DNA from: a bacterium
Lineage (GTDB): Bacteria; Bacteroidota; Bacteroidia; Bacteroidales; UBA932
NCBI GenBank assembly: GCA_963649415.1
Contig: CAVJHI010000004.1
Span: 2,497-66,496 of the forward strand
DNA: 64,000 nt
Direction of reading: 5' to 3'
Positions within the stretch are counted from its first letter, which is position 1, and each line of letters opens with the position of its first letter. A program made the translations under genes and the position numbers. The notes under the pieces are model-generated. The model did not search any database. It worked only from the letters and a program-made list of their open reading frames with translations, and was not told where the DNA came from. This document shows, one piece after another, positions 3,801 through 46,980 of this stretch.

Positions 3801-3966
3801 TGCAATCTTCGGAGGTGAGTCTATCAGAGGTCTTTCTGTAGCCCTTTGCCTTGGTGTCTGCATCGGTACTTACGCTTCCATCATGATCGCTACCCCTATC
3901 ATGTATGACTGCACGATGAAGGCGCGCAAGAAGGCTGCCGAGAAGGCCGCTGCCAAGAGGAAGTAA
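892..3966 (+). CDS. secDF: Protein translocase subunit SecDF (fused SecD+SecF)
   Basis: 1024 aa. It has a periplasmic domain followed by two 6-TM blocks with the SecD motifs (LDLKGGMNV, LGPSLG) and the SecF half (GVDFTGGR...). The fusion is typical of Bacteroidota. Confidence 0.95.
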   Translation: MQSKGAIRFVAICLILACLWQLSFTLVTSICTKKADAAAEKAVENVMKTAAYAEIPDGDKAYYLDSIRKIESRRYTDSISTEKIYFGYTFKSVQNQEINLGLDLKGGMNVMLQVQLEDLVKALAGNNATPEFQKAIALAKERSVNSQSDFITLFAEAWKEVGSGQRLAQIFGTYEMRDRIKPESTDDQVVSVIREESESAIANSFNVLRNRIDRFGVTQPSIQKLGNTGRILVELPGVKEPERVRKLLQGTASLEFWTTYASQEIAPYLEEANSLLAQLLADDEVEEAAAEESAEADDLVAQEIKAQGGEADEADMAAYRKANPLFAVLSPSQFRDNACIGLAAAADTALVNKYLNMPEVEALFPAEFRPMWSVKPTSYIQNSNVYELVAIKASSRDGKAPLDGGVVTNARVDYNDRRGGEPGVSMTMNAEGANTWARLTKDNIGRQVAIVLDGTVYSYPTVQTEITGGQSSITGNFSIEEATDLANVLNSGKLPAPATIVQEQVVGPSLGAESIHAGFVSFIIAFCLVLIYMIFFYKGAGVAADVALLTNVVLLFGTLSAFGAVLTLPGIAGLVLTMGMAVDANVIIYERIKEELKAGKGLGKAIQDGYSNAYSAIIDGQVTTLLTGIVLFFFGSGPIKGFATTLIIGIITSVLTSIFITRLIFDDRVNRGKNITFETKLTKNFLKNTHINFLSGRKWSYTISGAIIVLAIVSMCFKGFTYGVDFTGGRTYVVRFDKPVTAEEVREATNKVFEAAAAADPNVAASSVEVKQFGGDSQMKITTAYKFQDESSAVDTEIEGMLYESLKGLYAEDLTLDEFTSTLENPNGIISSDKVGASIANDIKRNALISIVLALLVIFAYIAVRFKGWTWGLGGVVSLAHTAIIIIGFFSFFSGILPFNLDVDQTFIAAILTIIGYAINDTVVIFDRIRENLGLHPNDDFREVTNKSLNATLTRTVNTSVSTLLPMLAIAIFGGESIRGLSVALCLGVCIGTYASIMIATPIMYDCTMKARKKAAEKAAAKRK

Positions 3967-3981
3967 TTTTTTCTGAATATC

Positions 3982-4019
3982 AAAACGTCCGACCCGTCAA
4001 AAGGCCGGACGTTTTTTTT
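3982..4019 (+). terminator. Rho-independent terminator after secDF
   Basis: The stem AAAACGTCCG...CGGACGTTTT is followed by a T-tract. Confidence 0.7.
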
Positions 4020-4026
4020 ATCTTTG
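4019..4026 (+). promoter_or_regulatory. -7 box TATCTTTG, 7 nt upstream of the dnaE ATG
   Basis: TAnnTTTG match. Only 7 nt (tgctgct) separate the box from the ATG at 4034. No clear -33 TTTG was seen. Confidence 0.4.
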
Positions 4027-4033
4027 TGCTGCT

Positions 4034-7000
4034 ATGTCTTTTGTACACCTTCACGTCCACACGCAGTACTCTATCCTTGACGGGATGAGCGATATCGAGA
4101 AACTGTTCCGCCGCGCAGAAGAGCTCGGCATGCCCGGCCTTGCCATCACCGACCACGGCAATATGTTCGGTGTCAAGGACTTCAAGGACGTGTCGGCGAA
4201 GCACCCAGGCGTGAAGCCGATCGTGGGCTGCGAAATCTATGTCACGCAGCACTACGACCACACTCTCAAGGATAGCGAGCACAAGAAATACTATCACCTC
4301 ATCCTGCTTGCCAAGAACTACGACGGCTACCGCAACCTGATGAAGATAGTCTCCACGGGGCACATCGAGGGAATGTATTACAAGCCGCGTGTGAGCCACG
4401 AAGTGGTGGAGAAGTACCACGAGGGGCTCATCTGCTGCTCGGCCTGTATGGCGGGAGAAGTCCCGCGCGGGATCCTCGCCGGCGACGCGGAAGGGGTTGA
4501 CAAGGCCATAGAGTGGCACAAGAGGGTGTTCGGCGACGACTATTACCTCGAAGTGATGCTCCACCGCACGGAGGTGCCGGGGCTCTCTACTGAGCTCTAC
4601 GAGAAGCAGAAGGAGTATTGTGCCGAGATTTTCCGCCTCGCGGAGAAGCACGGAGTCAAGGTCGTGGCCACCAACGACGTGCACTTCGTGCGTAAGGAGG
4701 ACGGTCCAGCCCACGACAGGCTCATCTGCCTCACCACCAACTCGATGGTCGATGACCCGAAGAGACTCCGCTACACCCAGCAGGAGTACCTCAAGAGCGA
4801 GGAGGAGATGGCGGCCCTCTTCCCGGACCACCCGGAAGCCCTCGCCAACACGCTGGAGGTACTGGACAAGGTGGAGAACTACGCCATCGACAGGGGCCAC
4901 GTGCTCCCAAAGTTCCAGATAGACCAGGCCTTCCTCGACAATATAGACTTCTACCTCGACAAGTACTCGGATATCATCGAAAACGGGCGCTACGAGGTCA
5001 CTAAAGACCACGATGGTAACATTATAAGCAAGACCGACAGAGGCGACGAATTCCGCCGTTCTGTGGCCTTTCTGTGCCATCTTACCTACGAAGGCGCGCG
5101 CGAGCGCTACGGCGAGACACTCAACGAGGTACAGAGCGAGCGCATCCACTTCGAGCTGATGACCATCTCCAATATGGGATTCCCGGACTACTTCCTCATC
5201 GTCCAGGACTTCATCAACTGGGGCCGCCGAAACGGCGTCTCCGTGGGCCCGGGAAGAGGCTCGGCTGCGGGTTCGTGCGTTGCGTACTGCCTGCACATCA
5301 CCAACCTCGACCCTATCCGCTACGACCTCCTCTTCGAGCGCTTCCTCAACCCGGAGCGAATCTCGATGCCTGATATCGACGTGGACTTCGACGACGAAGG
5401 CCGCTACCGCGTAATCCAGTATGTGCAGGAGCACTACGGCGCCGACCACATCTCGCATGTAATTACCTTCGGAACGATGGCCGCGAAGCTCGCGGTCAAG
5501 GATGTGGCGCGCATCTCCAACATGTCCATCCCGGAGTCCAACCGCCTCACCAAGATGATTCCGGACAAGCCGATAGTGGTCAAGGAGAACGGCGAGGACA
5601 AGGAATACAAGCCGACGCTCGCCAACAGCGTGAAGTATGTCAAGGAGCTGAAGGAAGAATACGAGAACGGCGAGCCGCTGGTCAAGGAAGTACTCAACTA
5701 CGCCCTCCAGCTCGAGGGCTGCATCCGTCAGACCGGCATCCACGCCTGCGCGATGATAATCGGACGCGGCAATCTCACGGACTACATCCCGATTACAATG
5801 GGCGAAGACAAGGCCACGGGCCAGCAGGTCTGGGTGAGCCAGTACGAAGGCACCAAAATCGAGGATGTCGGCATGCTCAAGATGGACTTCCTCGGCCTTA
5901 AGACTCTATCCATCATCGACCGCTGCCTCGCGCTCGTCAAAAAGAGATTCGGGGCGGAAATCGACATAGAGAAAATCCCTATCGACGACCCTGCCGTGTT
6001 TGACCTCTACTCCAGGGGCGACACCAAGAGCATATTCCAGTTTGAATCCGGGGGGATGAAGGAGTGGCTCATCAAGCTGCACCCGGAGCGCTTCGAGGAC
6101 CTCATCGCGATGAACGCGCTCTACCGCCCGGGGCCTATGGACTACATCCCGAACTTCGTGGCCGGCAAGAACGACCCGAGCAAAATCACCTACGACCTGC
6201 CGGAGATGGAGGAATACCTCAAGGAGACCTACGGCGTCACGGTCTATCAGGAGCAGGTGATGCTCCTCTCGCAGAAGCTGGCCGGATTCTCCAAAGGCAA
6301 GGCCGACAAGCTCCGCAAGGCGATGGGCAAGAAGAAAAAGGATGTGCTGGACTCCCTCAAGGCATCCTTTATGGAAGGAGCCGAGAAGAACGGCCACCCG
6401 AAGGAAGTGCTCGAGAAGATATGGAAGGACTGGGAGGCGTTCGCCAAATACGCGTTCAACAAGTCCCACGCGACCTGCTATGCCTGGGTAAGCTACCAGA
6501 CCGCCTGGCTCAAGGCCCACTACCCGTCCGAATTCCAGGCCTCCAACCTCACCCAGAACTCCGCCAATATGGAGGAGATGAAGGACATAATGGCCGACTG
6601 CCGCAAGGGCGGCATCAAGGTGCTGAGCCCCGACATCAACGAGTCTGAGGCGCAGTTCTCAGTCAACCATCAGGGCGACGTGCGCTTCGGCCTGAGCGGA
6701 CTCAAGGGATTCGGTGACAATATGGTCGTGAGCATCCTCAAGGACAGGGAAGCCAATGGGCTCTTCAAAGATATTTATGATTTCGTGGAGAGAATGTCCG
6801 CCACCATCAACCGGCGCGGGCTCGAAACTCTCGTATATTCAGGAGCTTTCGACTCCTTCGGGCTCAAGCGGTCACAGTATTTCCTGCCGTGCAGGAACGG
6901 GGAGCTCTTCATCGACGAGCTGGTCCGCTACGCCAACCTCTACCGCAACGACGAGATGGACAGTGCTTCATCGCTCTTCGGCGATGTGGAGGAGATGAAG

Positions 7001-7732
7001 CCGGTGAGGCCTGAAGCCCCTGTATTCTCAGGTGAAGAGGACACTCTCGCCCTGCTCCAGAAGGAGAAGGAATTCGTGGGGATGTACCTCTCCGCGCATC
7101 CGCTAGACCGCTACCGCTTCGAAATCGAGAACTTCACGAGCTGCCCGCTCACGGGAATCGACGCCCTAGTGGAGGAGCAGGAAGTTAAGGGAAAGTCCTG
7201 CAAGGCCTGCGTGGCCGGCATCGTGACCGATGTTAAGACCATCACCACCAAGAGCGGCTCACCGGGCGCGAAGGTCATAATGGAGGACTTCGACGGCAAC
7301 CACGAGTTCGCCCTCTTCGGCAAGGAGTACCAGGAGTTCCTGCCGTTTATGCAGCCTCACGCCCAGATATTCATCGAAGGTGAAGTTACCGAGAGATACT
7401 TCATAAAGAAGGAGGAGAGAGCTGCCGGGAAGACTTCGCCTTACACATTCAAATTCAAGAAGATATCCCTGCTCGGCAATGTCGGCAACGATATGATTTC
7501 CGAACTCGTGCTGCACATCGACTCCTCCCAGCTCAATCAGGAATTCCGCAAGAGTCTTGTCCGCCTGCTGAAGGATGCCAAGGGCAGCATTCCGCTCACC
7601 ATCAATCTCAGCGATGCCGCGAGCGGCTACAAGATAGATTTCCGATCCAAGAAGTTCTCGGTCGATATCACTCAGGAGCTTATGGACAAGCTGGACAATC
7701 TGAAGATTCTCCACAACTTCGTCAAGAGATAG
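4034..7732 (+). CDS. dnaE: DNA polymerase III subunit alpha
   Basis: 1232 aa. It has an N-terminal PHP domain (FVHLHVHTQYSILDG), the polymerase core (PDIDVDF) and a C-terminal OB fold. Confidence 0.97.
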   Translation: MSFVHLHVHTQYSILDGMSDIEKLFRRAEELGMPGLAITDHGNMFGVKDFKDVSAKHPGVKPIVGCEIYVTQHYDHTLKDSEHKKYYHLILLAKNYDGYRNLMKIVSTGHIEGMYYKPRVSHEVVEKYHEGLICCSACMAGEVPRGILAGDAEGVDKAIEWHKRVFGDDYYLEVMLHRTEVPGLSTELYEKQKEYCAEIFRLAEKHGVKVVATNDVHFVRKEDGPAHDRLICLTTNSMVDDPKRLRYTQQEYLKSEEEMAALFPDHPEALANTLEVLDKVENYAIDRGHVLPKFQIDQAFLDNIDFYLDKYSDIIENGRYEVTKDHDGNIISKTDRGDEFRRSVAFLCHLTYEGARERYGETLNEVQSERIHFELMTISNMGFPDYFLIVQDFINWGRRNGVSVGPGRGSAAGSCVAYCLHITNLDPIRYDLLFERFLNPERISMPDIDVDFDDEGRYRVIQYVQEHYGADHISHVITFGTMAAKLAVKDVARISNMSIPESNRLTKMIPDKPIVVKENGEDKEYKPTLANSVKYVKELKEEYENGEPLVKEVLNYALQLEGCIRQTGIHACAMIIGRGNLTDYIPITMGEDKATGQQVWVSQYEGTKIEDVGMLKMDFLGLKTLSIIDRCLALVKKRFGAEIDIEKIPIDDPAVFDLYSRGDTKSIFQFESGGMKEWLIKLHPERFEDLIAMNALYRPGPMDYIPNFVAGKNDPSKITYDLPEMEEYLKETYGVTVYQEQVMLLSQKLAGFSKGKADKLRKAMGKKKKDVLDSLKASFMEGAEKNGHPKEVLEKIWKDWEAFAKYAFNKSHATCYAWVSYQTAWLKAHYPSEFQASNLTQNSANMEEMKDIMADCRKGGIKVLSPDINESEAQFSVNHQGDVRFGLSGLKGFGDNMVVSILKDREANGLFKDIYDFVERMSATINRRGLETLVYSGAFDSFGLKRSQYFLPCRNGELFIDELVRYANLYRNDEMDSASSLFGDVEEMKPVRPEAPVFSGEEDTLALLQKEKEFVGMYLSAHPLDRYRFEIENFTSCPLTGIDALVEEQEVKGKSCKACVAGIVTDVKTITTKSGSPGAKVIMEDFDGNHEFALFGKEYQEFLPFMQPHAQIFIEGEVTERYFIKKEERAAGKTSPYTFKFKKISLLGNVGNDMISELVLHIDSSQLNQEFRKSLVRLLKDAKGSIPLTINLSDAASGYKIDFRSKKFSVDITQELMDKLDNLKILHNFVKR

Positions 7733-7758
7733 ACTGGTTGTCCTGCACTGAATACTAA

Positions 7759-7792
7759 AAGAGGGCCGCGGCGATGTGCTGCAGCCCTCTCT
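7759..7792. terminator. Bidirectional hairpin between the convergent dnaE and the 7811-8404 gene
   Basis: AAGAGGGC...GCCCTCTCT inverted repeat with an extended GC-rich stem. Confidence 0.5.
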
Positions 7793-7810
7793 TTATCAGG
7801 CAATTGCGGA

Positions 7811-8404
7811 TTATTTGCTGAGGTTGAATCCGGCGTCGATGCTCTTCGCTGAGGCGAGCACTGATGAGAGGCTCTTGAGCGTGGAGTTGGTGGACTTGCT
7901 GGAAGTGGTGGAAATTACCTTCTTTGCGAAAGTGAGGAACTTCTCGCCGTCGAAAAGCAGCTTGCAGCCGTCGGTGGTAGTGCTGACTGTGCCGTCAAGC
8001 TGAAGGTAGGTCAGAGCCTTGCCGAACTTGATGGTCACTGCGGTGCCGTCCTGTGTCCAGGTGCCGGTGAGAGGAACTTTACCGAAAGTCATTGTGAAAT
8101 CTCCGTCCTCCTCGAACTCGAGGGTGGCGGAACCGGCCTTGATGCCGACCTTGGTGAAGGCTTTGTTGATCTTGGTCTCGACTGTGCTGAGGGCTGCGGT
8201 GCCGGCTGCAGAAGTCAGGACGTTGTCGCTGCGGAGAGCGGTCGCCACTCCCTGATATGTCCAGGTGGTTCCCTTGAGATCCGTGGTCACGGCGGATGAT
8301 ACTACGCTGGAAGCTACGCTCTTGAGCGCATTGAGGATGTCGCTCTGGGCGCTGAGTGACACTGTCATAAGTGACAGAGCCGCGATAATGATGATTCTTT
8401 TCAT
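7811..8404 (-). CDS. Secreted lipocalin-like protein (DUF4923-like)
   Basis: The real start is the ATG at 8404 (MKRIIIIAALSLMTVSLSAQS, a signal peptide). The mature part (LKGTTWTYQGVATALRSDNVL...GKVPLTGTWTQDGTAVTIKFG) resembles the Bacteroidales DUF4923 family. The longer ORF up to 8593 overlaps thiL and is rejected. Confidence 0.5.
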   Translation of the reverse strand: MKRIIIIAALSLMTVSLSAQSDILNALKSVASSVVSSAVTTDLKGTTWTYQGVATALRSDNVLTSAAGTAALSTVETKINKAFTKVGIKAGSATLEFEEDGDFTMTFGKVPLTGTWTQDGTAVTIKFGKALTYLQLDGTVSTTTDGCKLLFDGEKFLTFAKKVISTTSSKSTNSTLKSLSSVLASAKSIDAGFNLSK

Positions 8405-18441: not shown

Positions 18442-18475
18442 TTAAGGCTCGCCTCCAAACGGAAGCGAGCCTTAA
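18442..18475. terminator. Bidirectional terminator hairpin between the convergent hflX and frdB
   Basis: Perfect 11-bp inverted repeat TTAAGGCTCGC...GCGAGCCTTAA, flanked by A-rich and T-containing runs. Confidence 0.65.
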
Positions 18476-33752: not shown

Positions 33753-34604
33753 TCAAAAATACACAAAACACGCAACGGGAAGATGGTCACTTACTCCGCC
33801 TTCGTACCTCGGGCCGATGAATGTGCGCCGCGGCTTCTGGCCCCCGAATTTACGGTCCTCCGTTAGCAGGGCCGGATCGTCGAATACCTCCTCCCGCAGC
33901 TGTATGTCCCCATAGGAGAAGCAACCGTCAATCTTTTCCCATTTTCCGTTGTATTTAATGGTTCCGGGGCAATTTTCGGGCCATATACTGTCGTTAAAGT
34001 CTCCGATGCACACCACACTCTTCGTGCCCGCGCAAAGCAGCGAATCGACCGTTTCCTCCATTTTTGCGAATGCCGCCCTGCGCCGGTCGGATTTGCCCCC
34101 TATTTTGGATGGGTGGTGGTTGACGAGCACAGCAATCCCTTCCTTGAACTGCACGGAGAGTATGTCGCGGGTCGCAATCACCGCTCCGCTGCTGTCGCGG
34201 ATATGCACGGGGCGGCTCTCCTCGGGGCTCAAGGCCGAGCGGCGGTAGAGCAGCGCGCAGTCGATGCCGCGATGGTCGGGGGAGTCGAAGTGCACATAGG
34301 AGTAGTCCAGCTTGCGAAGGGGAGTTTCCTTTAGGAGGCTGCGGAGCACGAAAGCATTCTCCACCTCGGCGAGCGCCACGATATCGGGCAGTTTACCATA
34401 ACGGTCTGCAAATCTGAGAATTATCTTAGCAAGCGCGTCGCACTTGGAGTAGAATCTCCGCTTCGTCCAGTATTCCGGGCGGGCAGGGGAGCGGTAGTCG
34501 AAAAAATTCTCCACATTCCAGAACATTACGGAAATTGAATCCCTCTGCGCGTGTAGCGACAGCGGCAGCAGGATGGCGAGAAGTATTATCATAGTCCGTT
34601 TCAT
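33753..34604 (-). CDS. Secreted endonuclease/exonuclease/phosphatase (EEP) family protein
   Basis: It has a signal peptide (MKRTMIILLAILLPLSLHAQ) and EEP motifs (VMFWNVENFF, LAEVEN, GDFND, SDHLPV). Confidence 0.75.
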   Translation of the reverse strand: MKRTMIILLAILLPLSLHAQRDSISVMFWNVENFFDYRSPARPEYWTKRRFYSKCDALAKIILRFADRYGKLPDIVALAEVENAFVLRSLLKETPLRKLDYSYVHFDSPDHRGIDCALLYRRSALSPEESRPVHIRDSSGAVIATRDILSVQFKEGIAVLVNHHPSKIGGKSDRRRAAFAKMEETVDSLLCAGTKSVVCIGDFNDSIWPENCPGTIKYNGKWEKIDGCFSYGDIQLREEVFDDPALLTEDRKFGGQKPRRTFIGPRYEGGVSDHLPVACFVYF

Positions 34605-34768
34605 ACTGCTAATATGGTGATTTTTTGAGTATGTCCTCATCATTTTTATGAAAATTCAAATTATTTGTTTGATTTATTCCGGAATTTGCATATCTTGCCA
34701 CGGAACCAAGATTTACACATCGATAAACTCTCGAGACTGATGCCGTATTTTTTTTCTATTCATAGCTT

Positions 34769-34800
34769 CACTAGTGGCCAAATTTATTTGGCCACTAGTG
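34769..34800. repeat. Perfect palindrome CACTAGTGGCCAAA-TTTA-TTTGGCCACTAGTG (left copy)
   Basis: 14-bp arms with a 4-nt spacer, 15 nt upstream of the ATG at 34816. A second copy lies at 36426-36463. Confidence 0.9.
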
Positions 34801-34815
34801 ATAAAATATCTATTT

Positions 34816-35118
34816 ATGAAATCAAAACATCTTTTCATTTCAAGCATCGTCTTGCTTATTATGTCTGCTGCCATTTGCGGCTTGACGCTAACCCAAAACG
34901 ACCTTTCTTTAGGATTATTGTTTGAAGACCTGGAAGCATTGGCTTATTCGAATGAGCCACCAGGAGAGCAGGGATACCGACATTCCCAAGCCGTGTGGTG
35001 TGCCGGTGGAGGCTGGTCAATAAGAGCGGGATGTTGCTATGGTTCAGAGAATTGCTATAATATGGATCCGTGTGATGGACGAATGTATTCTTGTGACGGA
35101 AATAGCTGGTATAATTAA
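34816..35118 (+). CDS. NVEALA-family-like small Cys-rich secreted or membrane-anchored peptide (100 aa)
   Basis: MKSKHLFISSIVLLIMSAAICGLTL is a hydrophobic leader or anchor. LLFEDLEALA resembles the NVEALA motif of the Bacteroidales small-protein family. The C-terminal 56 aa contain 6 Cys and many G/W/Y/N. The ATG at 34816 is preferred over the GTG at 34774, which lies inside the palindrome. Confidence 0.65.
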   Translation: MKSKHLFISSIVLLIMSAAICGLTLTQNDLSLGLLFEDLEALAYSNEPPGEQGYRHSQAVWCAGGGWSIRAGCCYGSENCYNMDPCDGRMYSCDGNSWYN

Positions 35119-35135
35119 AATAAAAACATTTGACC

Positions 35136-36290
35136 ATGAAATATTTTTATATTTTATTCTTCGTTACCATTTGTCTCTCATGTTCTACTGTTGTTAACAA
35201 TGACTCTGCGGCTCCGACCGTTGATATAATCAAGGAAACAACGGAGGTGAAGACATTAGATAAATATATTTCTGATATTGATATAATTAGACTCAGCTCC
35301 GACTCTCTAACCATAATGTCTCCAAATAAACTTATCATTAATGGAGATAGATTAATAATCCTCTTTGCCGGAAGAGTATCCGAGTTTTCTTCTACCGGAG
35401 CTTTTGTCCGCAATATAGGGCGTGTTGGAAATGGCCCAGGAGAGTATCTTCACATTCAAGATTGTTGTTTGAATCACTCTGGAGATGAACTGCTTTGTTT
35501 AAATCACATGAATGAAGTTTTAATTTATTCTTTACGGAATGGACAGTTCTTAAATAAAATTCCAGCAGGCAATAGAGGTGTCACAGCTACTGCGGTACTG
35601 CCTCTTTCGGATGGAAAATTTGCATTGTTCTATCCTAATCCACCACAGGCGGACATAATGGATTTTGATAAAGAATTCAATTGTGTTAGAATTTATGACA
35701 AGTCTGGAAAGGAAATAGAAGCTTTGTCTCCACGAGAAGACTTTAATATCAGTATGGGCTTCACATCTCCTTCTGTTCAATCGTTCAAGGATTCTTATGT
35801 GCTTTCATATAAGCCAGGAGATGGTTTGTGTTATGTGGTAAAAGACGGAACAATAGCGCCTTTACTTAACATTACATTCGGAAACCATGGAATTCCAAAT
35901 AAAGAAGCGGTAACAGGAGTCGATGATCCATGGATGAAAATTTCTGAAATATTTGAGGCGGATTACTACAAATGCCCATCCTCCGTTTGCGAAACTGAGA
36001 AGGTCTTATATTGTTCAGCTTTTGGGAAGGGATCATCAGTATGGAATTTCGCACTTGATAAATCCTTAAAGCATGGAATTAGATGGCGTTCCATAGGTGG
36101 TTATAATCCCCCGATGCGAGCGTTGGCAGCCGACAAAGATTATTTGTATTTTTGCTTTGGTGAAATTGGTTTTGCCGACCCTTCGAAGACAGAGGACCTC
36201 TTACAGAAAATCATCATAGAGAGGTCGGGGCTTGTTCTTGGAGAGGAAGATAATCCTGTCCTTGTTAAAGTAAAATTCAAGCGATTATGA
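35136..36290 (+). CDS. 6-bladed beta-propeller lipoprotein (BF3164 / DUF5128-like family)
   Basis: MKYFYILFFVTICLSCS is a lipobox. The body is about 370 aa with repeated strand-rich blades (RLIILFAGRVSEFS, GNGPGEY..., FALFYPNP..., VLSYKPGD...), as in the Bacteroidales propeller family that usually neighbours NVEALA genes. It starts 17 nt after the peptide gene. Confidence 0.6.
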   Translation: MKYFYILFFVTICLSCSTVVNNDSAAPTVDIIKETTEVKTLDKYISDIDIIRLSSDSLTIMSPNKLIINGDRLIILFAGRVSEFSSTGAFVRNIGRVGNGPGEYLHIQDCCLNHSGDELLCLNHMNEVLIYSLRNGQFLNKIPAGNRGVTATAVLPLSDGKFALFYPNPPQADIMDFDKEFNCVRIYDKSGKEIEALSPREDFNISMGFTSPSVQSFKDSYVLSYKPGDGLCYVVKDGTIAPLLNITFGNHGIPNKEAVTGVDDPWMKISEIFEADYYKCPSSVCETEKVLYCSAFGKGSSVWNFALDKSLKHGIRWRSIGGYNPPMRALAADKDYLYFCFGEIGFADPSKTEDLLQKIIIERSGLVLGEEDNPVLVKVKFKRL

Positions 36291-36439
36291 ATAGCTTCTC
36301 AAGGAATAAGTGGACTGTGGCTCTGTGTGGAGTGGCCGTGAGTGTCCTTTTTTTCGTTATCGCTCTGCAATTCAGAGCGATAACGAAATTTAAAACGATG
36401 GAGCCCAGAGATAGATATATAAAATCACTAGTGGTCTAA
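36287..36439 (+). CDS. Possible 50-codon micro-ORF with one TM helix (MNSFSRNKWTVALCGVAVSVLFFVIALQFRAITKFKTMEPRDRYIKSLVV)
   Basis: It has an ATGA start/stop overlap with the propeller gene and is below the ORF-track cutoff. It contains a perfect 15-bp hairpin and ends inside the right palindrome, so it may be non-coding. Confidence 0.2.
   Translation: MNSFSRNKWTVALCGVAVSVLFFVIALQFRAITKFKTMEPRDRYIKSLVV
36353..36387 (+). terminator. 15-bp perfect hairpin downstream of the propeller gene (possible terminator)
   Basis: TTCGTTATCGCTCTG-caatt-CAGAGCGATAACGAA, followed by an A/T-rich sequence but no clean T-tract. Confidence 0.4.
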
Positions 36440-36463
36440 AATGATTTTATTTGGCCACTAGTG
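36426..36463. repeat. Second copy of the CACTAGTGG...TTTGGCCACTAGTG palindrome (imperfect left arm, longer spacer)
   Basis: CACTAGTGGtCtAAA-ATGATTTTA-TTTGGCCACTAGTG. The right arm plus 4 nt (TTTATTTGGCCACTAGTG, 18 nt) is identical to the left copy. Confidence 0.9.
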
Positions 36464-36918
36464 TAATATTAATCATTTTCACAACATGTGCTATACACTT
36501 TAATTCGGTATACTATTCGCTTGTGATTATTCTGACAATCCCTATATCTATGATTGGAGTCTTTCTTGCATTCGGACTCACTGACTTGATATTCGATAAA
36601 GGCGGATTTGCATCGTTGGTGCTGCTATGCGGAATTACTGTCAATTCCGGCATATATCTTGTTTCTGAATGGAAGCGTAGAAGTGGCCGAAAAAAATCCA
36701 AAGATTATATCCGAATGTTCAACAAGAAAATATGGCCTATCTCACTGACGATAGTTTCCTCAATTATCGGTTTGGCCCCATTTCTCATTGATGGACCTTT
36801 AGAGGTGTTTTGGTTTAATTTTGCTGTAGGGACAATTACTGGGCTGATATTTTCGGGGATCGCAATGCTTCTCTTTATTCCACCTTTCCTTTTGAATACA
36901 CCGAAACATCGTAATTAG
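36451..36918 (+). pseudogene. C-terminal remnant (about 155 aa) of an RND/AcrB-family efflux permease
   Basis: The sequence SLVIILTIPISMIGVFLAFGLTD...LLCGITVNSGIYLVSEW...PISLTIVSSIIGLAPFL...GLIFSGIAMLLFIPPFL aligns by eye with TM10-12 of RND pumps. The roughly 850 N-terminal residues are absent. The frame opens at a TTG inside the palindrome, just after a stop at 36442. Confidence 0.7.
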
Positions 36919-36938
36919 GGCTATCCGCTTTTTTTGAG

Positions 36939-36946
36939 TACATTTG
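36939..36946 (+). promoter_or_regulatory. -7 box TACATTTG upstream of ychF
   Basis: TAnnTTTG match 20 nt upstream of the ATG at 36967. Confidence 0.4.
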
Positions 36947-36966
36947 CACACTAATTTTTGAATTTT

Positions 36967-38067
36967 ATGTCTCTCAAGTGCGGCATCGTAGGACTCCCTA
37001 ATGTGGGCAAGTCCACTCTTTTCAACTGCGTGAGCTCAGGCAAGGCCCAGAGCGCCAATTTTCCATTCTGTACCATCGAGCCTAATCTCGGCTCCACCAA
37101 TGTGCCGGACCGCAGGCTCGACACCCTTTCCGAAATCTGTCACCCGCAGCGGACAATCCCCGCTACCGTGGATATAGTGGATATCGCCGGCCTCGTGAAG
37201 GGTGCGAGCAGGGGAGAGGGCCTCGGCAACCAGTTTCTCGCCAACATCCGCGAATGCGACGCCATACTGCATGTGCTCCGCTGCTTTGATGACGGCAATG
37301 TGGTGCACGTGGACGGCAGCGTGGACCCTGTCAGGGACAAGGAAGTCGTGGATATGGAGCTGCAGATAAAGGACCTCGAGACCGTGGAGGCCCGCCTCGG
37401 CAAGGCGGAGAAGGCCGGCAAGGCAGGGGACAAGGAGGCGAAGAAGCTTGCCGACCTGCTCACCCGCTACAAGGCCGCCCTCGAGCAGGGACGCTCCTGC
37501 AGAAGCGTTGCCCTTCTCAACGAGGAGGAAGTCGCCATCGCGCACGACCTCTTCCTGCTCACCAACAAGCCGGTGATGTATGTCTGCAATGTGGATGACG
37601 CTTCGGCCGTGAACGGCAACGCCTATGTGGATGCCGTACGCGAGGCTGTCAAGGACGAGAACGCCGAGATACTTGTAATCTCCGCCAGGACCGAGTCCGA
37701 GATTGCGGAGATGGAGGACTATGAGGATAGGAAGATGTTCCTCGAGGAAATGGGGTTGGAAGAGTCCGGAGTGGTCCGTCTCATCCAGAGCGCCTACCGC
37801 CTGCTCGGACTTCAGACTTTCTTCACCGCCGGAGCCGACGAGTGCCGCGCCTGGACCATCAAGGTCGGCGACAAGGCCCCTAAGGCTGCCGGAGTGATAC
37901 ATTCCGACTTCGAGAAGGGCTTCATCCGCGCCGAGGTCATCAAGTACGACGACTTCGTCAAATACAAGACGGAAGCTGCCGTGCGCGCCGCCGGCAAGAT
38001 GGGCATCGAGGGCAAGGACTACACCGTCCAGGACGGCGACATAATGCATTTCCTTTTTAATGTTTAA
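36967..38067 (+). CDS. ychF: Redox-regulated ATPase YchF (Obg-like)
   Basis: MSLKCGIVGLPNVGKSTLFN is the G1 motif, with a TGS-like C-terminus (DGDIMHFLFNV). Confidence 0.95.
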   Translation: MSLKCGIVGLPNVGKSTLFNCVSSGKAQSANFPFCTIEPNLGSTNVPDRRLDTLSEICHPQRTIPATVDIVDIAGLVKGASRGEGLGNQFLANIRECDAILHVLRCFDDGNVVHVDGSVDPVRDKEVVDMELQIKDLETVEARLGKAEKAGKAGDKEAKKLADLLTRYKAALEQGRSCRSVALLNEEEVAIAHDLFLLTNKPVMYVCNVDDASAVNGNAYVDAVREAVKDENAEILVISARTESEIAEMEDYEDRKMFLEEMGLEESGVVRLIQSAYRLLGLQTFFTAGADECRAWTIKVGDKAPKAAGVIHSDFEKGFIRAEVIKYDDFVKYKTEAAVRAAGKMGIEGKDYTVQDGDIMHFLFNV

Positions 38068-38071
38068 TACC

Positions 38072-39190
38072 ATGAAACGCTTTACTTTACTCTTTTGTGC
38101 CGCCCTGCTGACGCTCGGCGCCTGCGGACAAAAGGAAAATCCCGGAGCCAAGGAAGAAGAGAAGAAAGACGATGTCACTTTCTACAAGGGAGCCGACATC
38201 TCCTGGGTGACGGAAATGGAGAGCAAGGGCAGCAAGTTCTACAACTCTCAAGGTCAGGAGCGGGACTGCTTTGTCCTGATGAAAGACTTGGGTCTCAATG
38301 CGGTACGCCTCCGCGTCTGGGTTAATCCGTCAGACGGCTGGTGCGGCAAGAGCGACTTCCTCGCAAAGGCCAAGAGAGCCGCTGCGCAGGGGCTTGACAT
38401 AATGGTGGACTTCCACTACAGCGACTCCTGGGCCGACCCGCAGAAACAGTACAAACCTGCAGCCTGGGAGGGTAAGAGCCTCAAAGAACTGATGATAGCA
38501 CTTCGCGACCACACAAGCGAGATAATGAACGACCTCAAGTCGGCGGGCATTACCCCGAAATGGGTGCAGATAGGCAACGAAATCCGTCCCGGGATGCTCT
38601 GGGACAGCGATGCGAGCATCAGCGGCGCAGCCTACGATGTGACCCAGGGCGGCAAGACCTACAAGGCTAACTTCACCAATCTAGTCAGCTTCCTCAATAC
38701 CGGCTACGCGGCAGTCAAGGCAGTATTCCCTGATACGATAGTCATTATCCATCTCGACAACGGCTACGACAACTCCCTCTACACCTATTTCTTTGACAAG
38801 GTCAAGAGCCTCGGCGGTAAGTGGGATATGATTGGAATGTCCATCTACCCTTACTGGACGAAGCAGTCCAAGCCGGAATACGAAGCCGATCAGGTCATAA
38901 CCGACTGCATCAACAACATTAAACTCGTCAGCACCCGCTACGACTGCGACGTGATGATAGTCGAGACTGGAGTGGAGTGTGCCGACGGCAACGGCAACCT
39001 AGCTTCCGAGAGCGTGCTCAAGGAGGGTTACCGCCAGATGAACCGCATCATCCAGGAGAGCCTCAACGAGACCTCGGGCCGCTGCAAGGGCGTATTCTAC
39101 TGGGAGCCGGAGTGCAAGCCGGGGCAGTACAGGCTCGGAGCCTTCACCGCCGACGGCCGCCCGACAGTGATAATGGACGCATTCAAATAG
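38072..39190 (+). CDS. Arabinogalactan endo-beta-1,4-galactanase (GH53), lipoprotein
   Basis: Lipobox LLTLGACG, then GH53 blocks (FYKGADISW, NAVRLRVWVNP, VQIGNEI, MIVETG). Confidence 0.88.
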   Translation: MKRFTLLFCAALLTLGACGQKENPGAKEEEKKDDVTFYKGADISWVTEMESKGSKFYNSQGQERDCFVLMKDLGLNAVRLRVWVNPSDGWCGKSDFLAKAKRAAAQGLDIMVDFHYSDSWADPQKQYKPAAWEGKSLKELMIALRDHTSEIMNDLKSAGITPKWVQIGNEIRPGMLWDSDASISGAAYDVTQGGKTYKANFTNLVSFLNTGYAAVKAVFPDTIVIIHLDNGYDNSLYTYFFDKVKSLGGKWDMIGMSIYPYWTKQSKPEYEADQVITDCINNIKLVSTRYDCDVMIVETGVECADGNGNLASESVLKEGYRQMNRIIQESLNETSGRCKGVFYWEPECKPGQYRLGAFTADGRPTVIMDAFK

Positions 39191-46189: not shown

Positions 46190-46980
46190 AGCAGTACCTC
46201 GACCTCCTTCAGACTATAATGGATACCGGTACGGTCCGTCACGACCGTACCGGTGTCGGTACAAAGAGCATATTCGGGCATCAGATGCGCTTCGACCTCA
46301 GCGAGGGCTTCCCTCTGCTCACCACCAAGAAAGTTCACCTGAAGTCCATCATCTACGAGCTTCTCTGGTTTATAAGCGGCGACACCAACATCCGCTACCT
46401 CAAGGAGCACGGGGTTTCCATCTGGGACGAGTGGGCCGACGAGAACGGCGATCTGGGCCCGGTCTATGGGCATCAGTGGCGTTCTTGGCCGGCTCCGGAC
46501 GGGAGAGTTATAGACCAGCTTTCCGATGTCATCGAGACCATCCGGCACAACCCCGACTCTCGCCGCATGCTTGTCTGCGCCTGGAATCCGGGCGAGGTGG
46601 ACAAGATGGCTCTGCCTCCTTGCCACTGCCTCTTCCAGTTCTATGTGGCCGACGGGCGGCTGTCCTGCCAGCTCTACCAGCGCAGCGCTGACACATTCCT
46701 CGGCGTGCCGTTCAACATAGCCTCCTATGCCCTGCTGACGATGATGATTGCCCAGACCTGCGGACTGCAGCCGGGCGAATTCATCCACACCACCGGCGAC
46801 ACGCACATCTACCTCAATCATTTCGACCAGGTGCGCGAGCAGCTTTCCCGCACTCCGCGTCCGCTCCCGACGATGAAGCTGAACCCGGATGTGAAGAGCG
46901 TGTTCGACTTCAAATACGAGGATTTTACCCTTGAGGGCTATGACCCGTGGCCGGCCATCAAGGCGCCTGTGGCGGTGTAG
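46186..46980 (+). CDS. thyA: Thymidylate synthase (ThyA type)
   Basis: 264 aa: MKQYLDLL..., DRTGVGT, and the active-site PPCH in [13 protein letters not shown]. It has an ATGA overlap with galM. Confidence 0.97.

Follow-up and report, generated by a model that had tools for sequence, protein, structure and literature searches.

Genes and features of the interval

The stretch of DNA analysed here (the window) comprises 64,000 nucleotides of contig CAVJHI010000004.1 (assembly GCA_963649415.1) from a member of the Bacteroidales, and the element in question occupies a little over 1.6 kb near its middle. This interval contains a shortened version of a three-gene module that is conserved in Bacteroidales, with two genes intact and the third reduced to a stump. 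According to their predicted products, the first gene encodes a pre-peptide of about 100 residues, the second a β-propeller lipoprotein of the Pfam family DUF5128 and the third, where it is complete, a single-pass membrane protein of about 175 residues with a CxxC motif. The arrangement that had been described from the letters alone (the original prediction) is present in all its parts: a Cys-rich peptide gene, a gap of 17 nt, a lipoprotein gene starting with the ATG at 35136, and a 50-codon open reading frame (ORF) with a single helix, whose start codon overlaps the stop codon of the propeller gene (ATGA, 36287-36290).

The module lies in an island of low guanine-cytosine (GC) content, which averages about 40% GC against about 55% around it in the composition profile and is the sole such stretch in the 64-kb window in a 1-kb GC scan. 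Its left neighbour is the gene of an EEP nuclease on the minus strand (33753-34643). The positions of all features are collected in Table 1. A scan of 34300-37300 against Rfam gave no match.

Table 1. Features of the low-GC island, with positions in the window
Feature	Position	Strand	Remarks
Low-GC island	34650..36950		~33-44% GC against ~50-64% in the chromosome; contains all module features
Palindrome 1	34768..34801		TCACTAGTGGCCAAAT-TT-ATTTGGCCACTAGTGA; 34 bp with perfect 16-bp arms; left end of homology with the sister contig
Pre-peptide gene	34816..35118	+	100 aa; signal-anchor, residues 1-26; DLEALA spacer, residues 38-43 (34927-34944); six-Cys core, residues 44-100 (34945-35115)
Gene of lipoprotein six-bladed NHL-type β-propeller (Pfam DUF5128)	35136..36290	+	384 aa; predicted lipidated Cys at residue 16
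Pseudogene stump of the third gene (transmembrane helix and CxxC)	36287..36439	+	codons 1-46, then 4 codons from palindrome 2; CxxC domain missing
Perfect 16-bp stem-loop	36352..36388	+	within the part of the third gene that codes for the transmembrane helix
Palindrome 2	36426..36463		CACTAGTGGTCTAAAATGATTTTATTTGGCCACTAGTG; imperfect; at the junction where 8,676 bp of the sister contig are missing
3' remnant of RND2 permease gene (AcrB-type)	36464..36918	+	last ~151 codons; ACR_tran positions 872-1016 of 1021; outside the peptide module

The pre-peptide

The product of the first gene contains seven Cys in 100 residues, six of which are found in the C-terminal 57. It starts with MKSKH, continues with a hydrophobic helix and reaches its core after the sequence ...FEDLEALA. 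As the N-terminus is positively charged and the helix is followed by an acidic C-terminal flank, an N-in/C-out orientation is predicted, which would place the Cys-rich domain in the periplasm. The core reads YSNExPGxQGxRxxQAVxC...GCCYGxxxC...C...SCDGxxW. The pattern of the whole family is a signal-anchor, often (D/N)VEAL(A/S), and then YSNE-x-PG-x-QG-x-R-xx-QAV-x-C ... GCC[YFL]G-xxx-C ... C ... [FY]-x-C, with Cys62, 73, 74, 80 and 93 invariant in the alignment. The peptide shares 97% identity with that of a sister lineage (locus L010). The spacer motif is DLEALA in the window and DLDALA in the sister lineage, other relatives carry D/N-V-E-A-L-A or NVEAAA, and still others have no such motif.

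Word-indexed searches are almost blind to this peptide and to the third gene; for the peptide, whose ORF is not called in the protein collection, a word-indexed protein search found one homologue. An exhaustive search with hidden Markov models (HMMs) was used instead. Among 1.84 billion representatives it gave 32 peptide matches, about 30 of them genuine (clusters at 50% identity), which means that the family is small and rare. The candidates P0038 and P0041 were rejected as repeat artefacts.

The peptide had originally been labelled as NVEALA-type. A kinship is plausible from the motif in relatives and from canonical NVEALA pairs at locus L019 and on a Phocaeicola vulgatus plasmid, but the window peptide itself scores 14.9 bits (expect value, E, 0.022) against Pfam PF14055 (NVEALA), below the gathering cut-off of 27 bits. 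The same model matches just two of 25 family members at E≤1, and no NCBIfam model matched the peptide.

The small-x-small sequence A-L-A (or A-L-S) ahead of YSNE fits a signal-peptidase-I site. Genes for signal peptidase I (TIGR02227 above cut-off) are found upstream of the peptide gene in two divergent loci, L010 (1107-3206, 699 aa) and L019 (5800-6849, 349 aa), and these paralogues could be dedicated leader peptidases for the EAL[A/S] site. A double-glycine leader was not found in the peptide alignment. In both L010 and L019 the signal peptidase I paralogue is accompanied by a Wzy_C/O-antigen-ligase-like gene.

The propeller lipoprotein

The second gene product matches Pfam PF17170 (DUF5128) over residues 28-296 with 87.5 bits (cut-off 22.9, E 1.2e-24). 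The best NCBIfam model is ScyF NHL with 12.3 bits (E 0.069), and there was no other. Of the label BF3164/DUF5128-like, the second half is well founded and the first could not be confirmed, as NCBIfam gave no BF3164 match and the closest solved protein is BF0058. A lipobox (MKYFYILFFVTICLSC, followed by S) stands at the end of the hydrophobic N-terminus, and its Cys16 is invariant in nine homologues, which bears out the assignment as a lipoprotein. The propeller has no acidic surface-export signal after this Cys, which implies that it probably faces the periplasm.

The AlphaFold2 (AF2) model of the propeller has a predicted local distance difference test score (pLDDT) of 86.5 and a predicted template modelling score (pTM) of 0.86. 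Its best match in Foldseek is PDB entry 4RAA (E 3.5e-17, TM-scores 0.69/0.74), which is also found by profile search (E 7.6e-15), followed by the six-bladed NHL domains of TRIM71, Thin and Brat and then by WD40 scaffolds. The six-bladed fold that had been predicted is thus confirmed at the level of the model. The closest solved protein by both sequence and fold, 4RAA, is BF0058 of Bacteroides fragilis, a “putative exported protein” from structural genomics which shares only 19% identity with the window propeller. As no function is assigned to 4RAA, it gives no mechanistic hint.

A first alternative to a binding role is that the propeller modifies the peptide, as a lyase, cyclase or cross-linker in the manner of the ribosomally synthesized and post-translationally modified peptides (RiPPs), with the peptide as its substrate and the CxxC protein as a redox helper. 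The tight, translationally coupled gene order would suit an enzyme and its substrate, six-bladed propellers do include enzymes (PMC6107167), and the acidic and amide residues that are invariant in the subfamily (E103, D109, N126, N168, D202, D333 and E343) could bind a metal. On the other side, the 50 Foldseek matches listed include no enzyme, the subfamily alignment holds no invariant His or Cys for a zinc or redox site, and no enzyme family of Pfam or NCBIfam was matched. Propellers also persist in six lineages without a peptide gene, which would be odd for a dedicated maturase. No enzyme family of the RiPP-modifying kind was detected in the module either; the only enzymes seen in its vicinity, and only at some loci, are signal peptidase I and C39 domains. 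The notion of an amidating lyase or a cyclase hence finds no support, with a protein of unassigned function as top structural match and NHL and WD40 binding scaffolds behind it, and a modifying propeller is held to be improbable. The profile and structure searches revealed no enzymatic identity of the propeller. The glutaminyl cyclases of bacteria and plants, which had been cited among six-bladed propellers, are five-bladed.

The third gene and its stump

The 50-codon ORF had been taken for a small third gene. It is instead the 5' stump of a gene for a protein of about 175 residues with a transmembrane helix and a CxxC motif, which is intact in the sister lineage and present in all eight lineages that could be assessed. 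Codons 1-46 align with the N-terminus of the intact L010 protein (P0015, 173 aa) at 64% amino acid and about 88% nucleotide identity, palindrome 2 supplies the final four codons, and the stump has an HMM score of 25.6 bits. The complete protein has an N-terminal transmembrane helix and, after a predicted β-strand, the invariant motif x-P-xxx-C-x-[AS]-C-x-x-S-L. Its gene usually overlaps the propeller stop codon by 1-11 nt. Profile searches against PDB and Pfam returned only an Atx1-like match (E 0.3-1.1), which was judged not trustworthy, and there is no invariant Pro at the position expected for a cis-Pro loop.

A perfect 15-bp hairpin was originally thought to end the unit. The sole perfect hairpin of the interval has 16 bp and does not end the unit, because it lies inside the 50-codon ORF and thus within the coding sequence of the third gene; at the stop codon there is the imperfect palindrome 2 instead. 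The stem is encoded within the segment VIALQxRAIT of the transmembrane helix, some 65 nt downstream of the propeller stop codon. In L010 it is kept with one mismatch (~5797-5830), and L011 and L013 preserve 12 perfect pairs owing to two compensatory changes; of the four substitutions involved, three are synonymous. This pattern, found in two independent lineages only, suggests an intra-operon RNA stem that may set the expression ratio of the genes.

In two lineages the CxxC gene is followed by the gene of a lipoprotein of about 340 residues without a Pfam match (L019, 8972-10012; L021, 2331-3326), which may be an optional fourth component. At L005 (5216-6241) the CxxC protein itself has 341 residues.

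Conservation of the module

The association of peptide and propeller was assessed with 17 metagenome loci that had been fetched using the peptide alone as bait, 16 of which have downstream sequence. A propeller of the same subfamily follows the peptide in all 16, with the third gene sitting between the two in one of them. When genome loci were collected via the propeller instead, the peptide stood directly upstream in four of seven. With genome and contig loci included, the pair is kept in nine peptide lineages (at most 85% core identity). The two genes are -26 to +35 nt apart in 15 of the 16 representative loci for which spacing was determined. The recurrent pairing that had been stated in the original prediction is thereby confirmed across lineages, with operon-like spacing. 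The adjacency is far beyond chance, and from the side of the peptide the pairing is obligatory. Where they are labelled, the relatives of the module belong to Bacteroidales, Rikenellaceae or Bacteroides.

These counts also decide against the simplest alternative, a chance adjacency in which the small ORF would be no gene at all. The peptide ORF is uncalled in the protein collection and its NVEALA score lies under the Pfam cut-off, as such a reading would have it, but some 30 related peptides with invariant Cys spacing, the 16 of 16 adjacencies and the very low ratio of nonsynonymous to synonymous substitution rates (dN/dS) of the peptide gene leave this reading with practically no probability. 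Chance adjacency is refuted.

Six propeller lineages have no peptide (L001, L005, L008, L015, L016 and L056); the peptide was never seen without a propeller. A peptide that never stands alone and a propeller that often does are what one would expect if the propellers were orphan immunity or partner genes.

Selection was measured by comparing the window with the sister lineage. The dN/dS value is 0.03 for the peptide gene and 0.11 for the propeller gene, as compared with 0.40 for the stump of the third gene (24 changes in 46 codons), 0.21 for the RND2 remnant and 0.003 for YchF. Peptide and propeller are under strong purifying selection. At synonymous sites (dS) the module has diverged by 0.37-0.41 and the core gene YchF next to it by an equal amount (0.37), which implies that the island was already at this site in the common ancestor and has been inherited vertically.

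In one lineage (L028, L031 and L032) the module has the context of a mobile element, between AbiEi/AbiEii toxin-antitoxin pairs, a helix-turn-helix gene and a tyrosine recombinase. In L031 and L032 the CxxC gene carries a frameshift. In L009 and L013 the module is preceded by genes for a stand-alone C39 peptidase domain and for an outer membrane β-barrel (at 2264-2485 and 3-2264 in L009, and at 1596-2078 and 3266-5515 in L013). The L013 barrel belongs to OMP_b-brl_3, and the 753-residue L009 protein has no Pfam match. The neighbourhood hints that these genes might provide an alternative processing or export route.

Comparison with known systems

The canonical pairs of NVEALA (PF14055) and PF17170 genes in Bacteroides and Phocaeicola share the precursor design of the window peptide, with a signal-anchor, an xVEALA spacer (DLEALA in the window peptide) and a six-Cys domain of about 55 residues that contains a CC doublet. 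They likewise continue with a DUF5128 lipoprotein propeller and then with a CxxC (CYPC) protein of about 176 residues. An example is the P. vulgatus plasmid pPvulCL10_1 (NZ_CP096966.1, L068), where a RefSeq NVEALA protein (47 bits, six-Cys tail, CC doublet) is followed by a six-bladed β-propeller, a 176-residue CYPC protein and a second propeller. At L019, an 81-residue “...ANVEALI...” peptide, a DUF5128 propeller and a lipoprotein with a CSSC motif (3810-4343) lie just upstream of the module described here, and L060 holds arrays of DUF5128 and DUF4221 propellers, each followed by a CxxC protein of the transmembrane or the lipoprotein type (e.g. 7601-8038). As these loci share it, the three-part design appears to be general, and some of the CxxC partners of canonical loci are expected to be periplasmic because they are lipoproteins (L019, 3810-4343; L060, 7601-8038).

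From this comparison of sequences, the window would represent a divergent subfamily of the three-part NVEALA/DUF5128 design. Its peptide differs from canonical NVEALA in missing the PF14055 cut-off, and its core (YSNE..PGxQGxR..QAVxC..GCCYG..) defines a distinct, rare family. The canonical pairs are themselves functionally uncharacterised.

The bacteroidetocins, class IIf bacteriocins, are a further parallel. Their loci encode a dedicated thiol oxidoreductase which is thought to make the disulfides of the peptide (PMC6671954). Both systems are accessory and patchy in distribution, and both combine a small secreted Cys-containing Bacteroidales peptide with a neighbouring thiol-redox protein, which is a putative one in the module (PMC6671954). 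They differ in that the bacteroidetocins have a 15-residue double-glycine leader, a C39-ABC exporter and a protein with five transmembrane helices (PMC6671954), whereas the window module has a Sec-type signal-anchor, a propeller lipoprotein and no double-glycine site. Neither an ABC nor a C39 gene was found in the window, and among the loci genes consisting of a C39 domain only were seen just in L009 and L013.

Another parallel, and a structural precedent for a CxxC-type motif that works beside an NHL propeller, is NHLRC2, in which a thioredoxin-like domain of the CxxC type is fused to a six-bladed NHL propeller; the motif lies near the binding face of the propeller, an arrangement that suggests a joint ligand site (PMC6107167). 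The window propeller matches NHL domains by sequence and fold. In contrast to the cytosolic, fused NHLRC2, the module uses separate, translationally coupled genes, and its CxxC protein is membrane-anchored and not recognisably thioredoxin-like.

In methylamine dehydrogenase, a small disulfide-rich subunit, a propeller subunit and the membrane-anchored CxxC factor MauD are encoded together. This leads to a second alternative, in which peptide and propeller form a stable periplasmic heteromer with the CxxC protein as assembly factor, similar to methylamine dehydrogenase with MauD or to quinohemoprotein amine dehydrogenase, and serve a metabolic or sensory role. The three-part architecture is the same as that of the mau and qhp clusters, and both the vertical inheritance at a fixed chromosomal site and a peptide core that is very strongly conserved (dN/dS 0.03), more so than the propeller, are in favour of this reading. 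However, methylamine dehydrogenase has a seven-bladed propeller and a Trp-derived quinone with maturation genes, none of which was seen here: the propeller has six blades, there is no invariant Trp pair such as the quinone cofactor needs, and no MauG, radical-SAM or other cofactor-maturation gene was found in any locus. The patchy, island-like distribution at low GC, the toxin-antitoxin and integrase neighbours in some loci and the common orphan propellers also speak against it, so that such a heteromer is considered unlikely.

A possible mechanism

The original prediction left the role of the propeller between a maturation enzyme, a receptor and an immunity or export partner. The last of these fits the data best. 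The model we favour, with a confidence a little short of even, is that the peptide acquires its disulfides with help of the CxxC protein, is bound by the propeller as immunity protein or chaperone and is then released as an effector. In a first step, Sec would insert the pre-peptide so that the Cys-rich domain comes to lie in the periplasm. The core would then gain three disulfides, with the CxxC protein helping. Bacteroides are not known to have a general disulfide machinery. The CxxC helper is invoked for this reason and because bacteroidetocin loci carry a thiol oxidoreductase of their own (PMC6671954). In a third step, the periplasmic propeller lipoprotein would bind the peptide via its top face, as an obligatory partner without enzymatic activity that protects the producer, escorts the peptide, or both. 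Finally, a cut of the signal peptidase type after the small-x-small EAL[A/S] would free the peptide, which would then serve as a secreted effector, most likely against competing bacteria. The window copy would at best be partly functional, as it has lost the CxxC helper and kept peptide and propeller intact.

Several observations weigh against this model. The EAL[A/S] motif is missing in some family members (L009 and L014), and a peptide core that is more conserved than the propeller is unlike many arms races between toxins and immunity proteins. Across the loci no outer membrane export route is conserved. The CxxC gene is absent from L014, L024 and the window, all of which keep peptide and propeller. 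The third protein itself has no family match in Pfam, NCBIfam or PDB, and its single-sequence AF2 model is unusable (pLDDT 50). Compared with the canonical CxxC partners it reaches an hhalign probability of 7%, with only the CxxC strand aligned. Its topology is ambiguous, since most members have one or two Lys/Arg before the transmembrane helix and two to four behind it, a charge distribution that would also allow a cytoplasmic CxxC domain. Finally, no literature on NVEALA, DUF5128 or BF3164 was found in the library searched; together with the lack of matches to the PADLOC anti-phage models (E≤0.1) for peptide, propeller, P0015 and stump, this agrees with the earlier statement that the pair has no experimentally assigned function.

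A broader claim would be that the modules of NVEALA-type peptide, DUF5128 propeller and CxxC protein make up an unrecognised class of disulfide-rich peptide systems in the periplasm of Bacteroidota, in which a non-catalytic NHL-type propeller lipoprotein acts as the dedicated receptor of a Sec-exported, leader-tethered peptide, in the role of immunity protein or chaperone. The modules would then represent either a novel bacteriocin class, protected by an immunity protein of a novel kind, or a novel system of peptide signalling among gut commensals. This generalisation is doubtful at present and is put forward only tentatively.

Few peptide weapons are known for the Bacteroidales, which dominate the gut of humans and animals. 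Should the propeller prove to protect against or escort a disulfide-rich peptide, a function could be assigned to many hypothetical genes of gut metagenomes. What is new here is the recognition of a third component, the CxxC membrane protein, in NVEALA/DUF5128 neighbourhoods that are annotated but uncharacterised. The variants that naturally lack a part, namely the window without the CxxC gene and the six lineages with the propeller only, amount to ready-made “knock-outs”. The locus is a lead to a new secreted-peptide system, though this copy is incomplete, and the intact copy of the sister lineage is the better experimental entry.

History of the site in this genome

The sister-lineage contig CAVAID010000046.1 (loci L010 and L062) carries the intact third gene at the same chromosomal site. 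Its homology with the window starts at 34803 and runs to 36425 with 89.8% nucleotide identity; a second block, 36463-38584, corresponds to L062 from the end of RND2 onwards with 91.6% identity, and the YchF protein is identical. Between the two blocks the sister contig holds 8,676 bp, with the rest of the third gene, a TolC-like outer membrane efflux protein (OEP), an HlyD-type membrane fusion protein (MFP), RND1 and most of RND2. The window is therefore the same chromosomal site after a deletion of 8.7 kb, a loss which broke the third gene after codon 46 and removed the neighbouring TolC-like, MFP and RND genes.

An assembly artefact was considered and rejected, as the same structure is found in three assemblies: two others, L055 (to its contig end) and L054 (GCA_963619665.1), share the arrangement of the window at 99.9% nucleotide identity. 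L054 has lost a further 283 bp (window 34445-34727), including the 5' end of the nuclease gene, and has different DNA after palindrome 2. In four metagenome-assembled genomes of the same species (L063-L066) the end of a DUF4372-type (IS4-like) transposase gene is found about 180 bp further to the right (window 36645), where it abuts the RND remnant, and three of those contigs (L063-L065) reach the outer terminus of the element. At least four structural variants of the site exist: the full island with the RND operon, the window type, the type with the 283-bp deletion and the type bearing an insertion sequence (IS). Within a single species, the interval between the EEP nuclease and YchF is a hot spot of rearrangement.

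Given this history, the locus in this genome might be a decaying relic which, having lost the CxxC gene and its original upstream region, has peptide and propeller ORFs that are neither expressed nor useful, an explanation that is compatible with the mechanism proposed for the family. The truncated third gene with its relaxed constraint (dN/dS 0.40), the rearrangement of both flanks, the further deletions and IS in strains of the same species, and the lack of a perfect Bacteroidetes -7 box (TAnnTTTG) upstream on the plus strand are all in line with decay. Yet both ORFs are intact and 99.9% identical at the nucleotide level in three independent assemblies, the L014 and L024 lineages likewise keep just peptide and propeller, and both genes have been under strong constraint across the lineage split, relative to which the deletion is undated. 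Decay of this copy is rather unlikely on balance.

The two palindromes are copies of one sequence, the second being imperfect, and they mark the edges of these changes: palindrome 1 stands where homology with the sister contig ends on the left, and palindrome 2 exactly at the deletion junction. No such palindrome is present in the sister contig. Four occurrences of the arm motif were counted, as compared with 0.26 expected by chance. The arm CACTAGTGGCCAAAT agrees with the outer end CATTAGTGTCCGGAG of the DUF4372-type element (L063-L065) at 10 of 15 positions, among them seven of the eight terminal ones. This resemblance is consistent with palindromes that may be minimal pairs of IS ends, similar to miniature inverted-repeat transposable elements, which mediated adjacent deletions. 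A full-length element with ends identical to the palindrome was not found. A search of plasmid DNA gave nothing, and the palindrome is absent from viral contigs, where isolated single-arm matches were judged to be chance. The window has two more long perfect hairpins (46225-46254 with a 12-bp stem and 18442-18475 with an 11-bp stem), neither of which is related in sequence to the palindromes of the island.

Reading the island as an integron cassette with attC sites was rejected, since the ORF list for 32-40 kb contains no integrase-like ORF (the other ORFs there were not profile-searched) and the palindromes measure just 34-38 bp. The integron core site is missing from them.

A functional link to RND efflux was likewise rejected. 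The end of the third gene in L010 coincides with a jump in GC content from 40% to 56%, the TolC-like/MFP/RND1/RND2 operon is chromosomal DNA beside the island, and in the L014 group the RND genes lie on the opposite strand. The RND remnant was also rejected as a part of the module. In L062 (4500-6000) the last ~1.5 kb of RND2 has a low GC content (38-42%) though the gene is intact, as compared with 53-60% in the rest of the operon, and the 3' end of RND2 looks mosaic.

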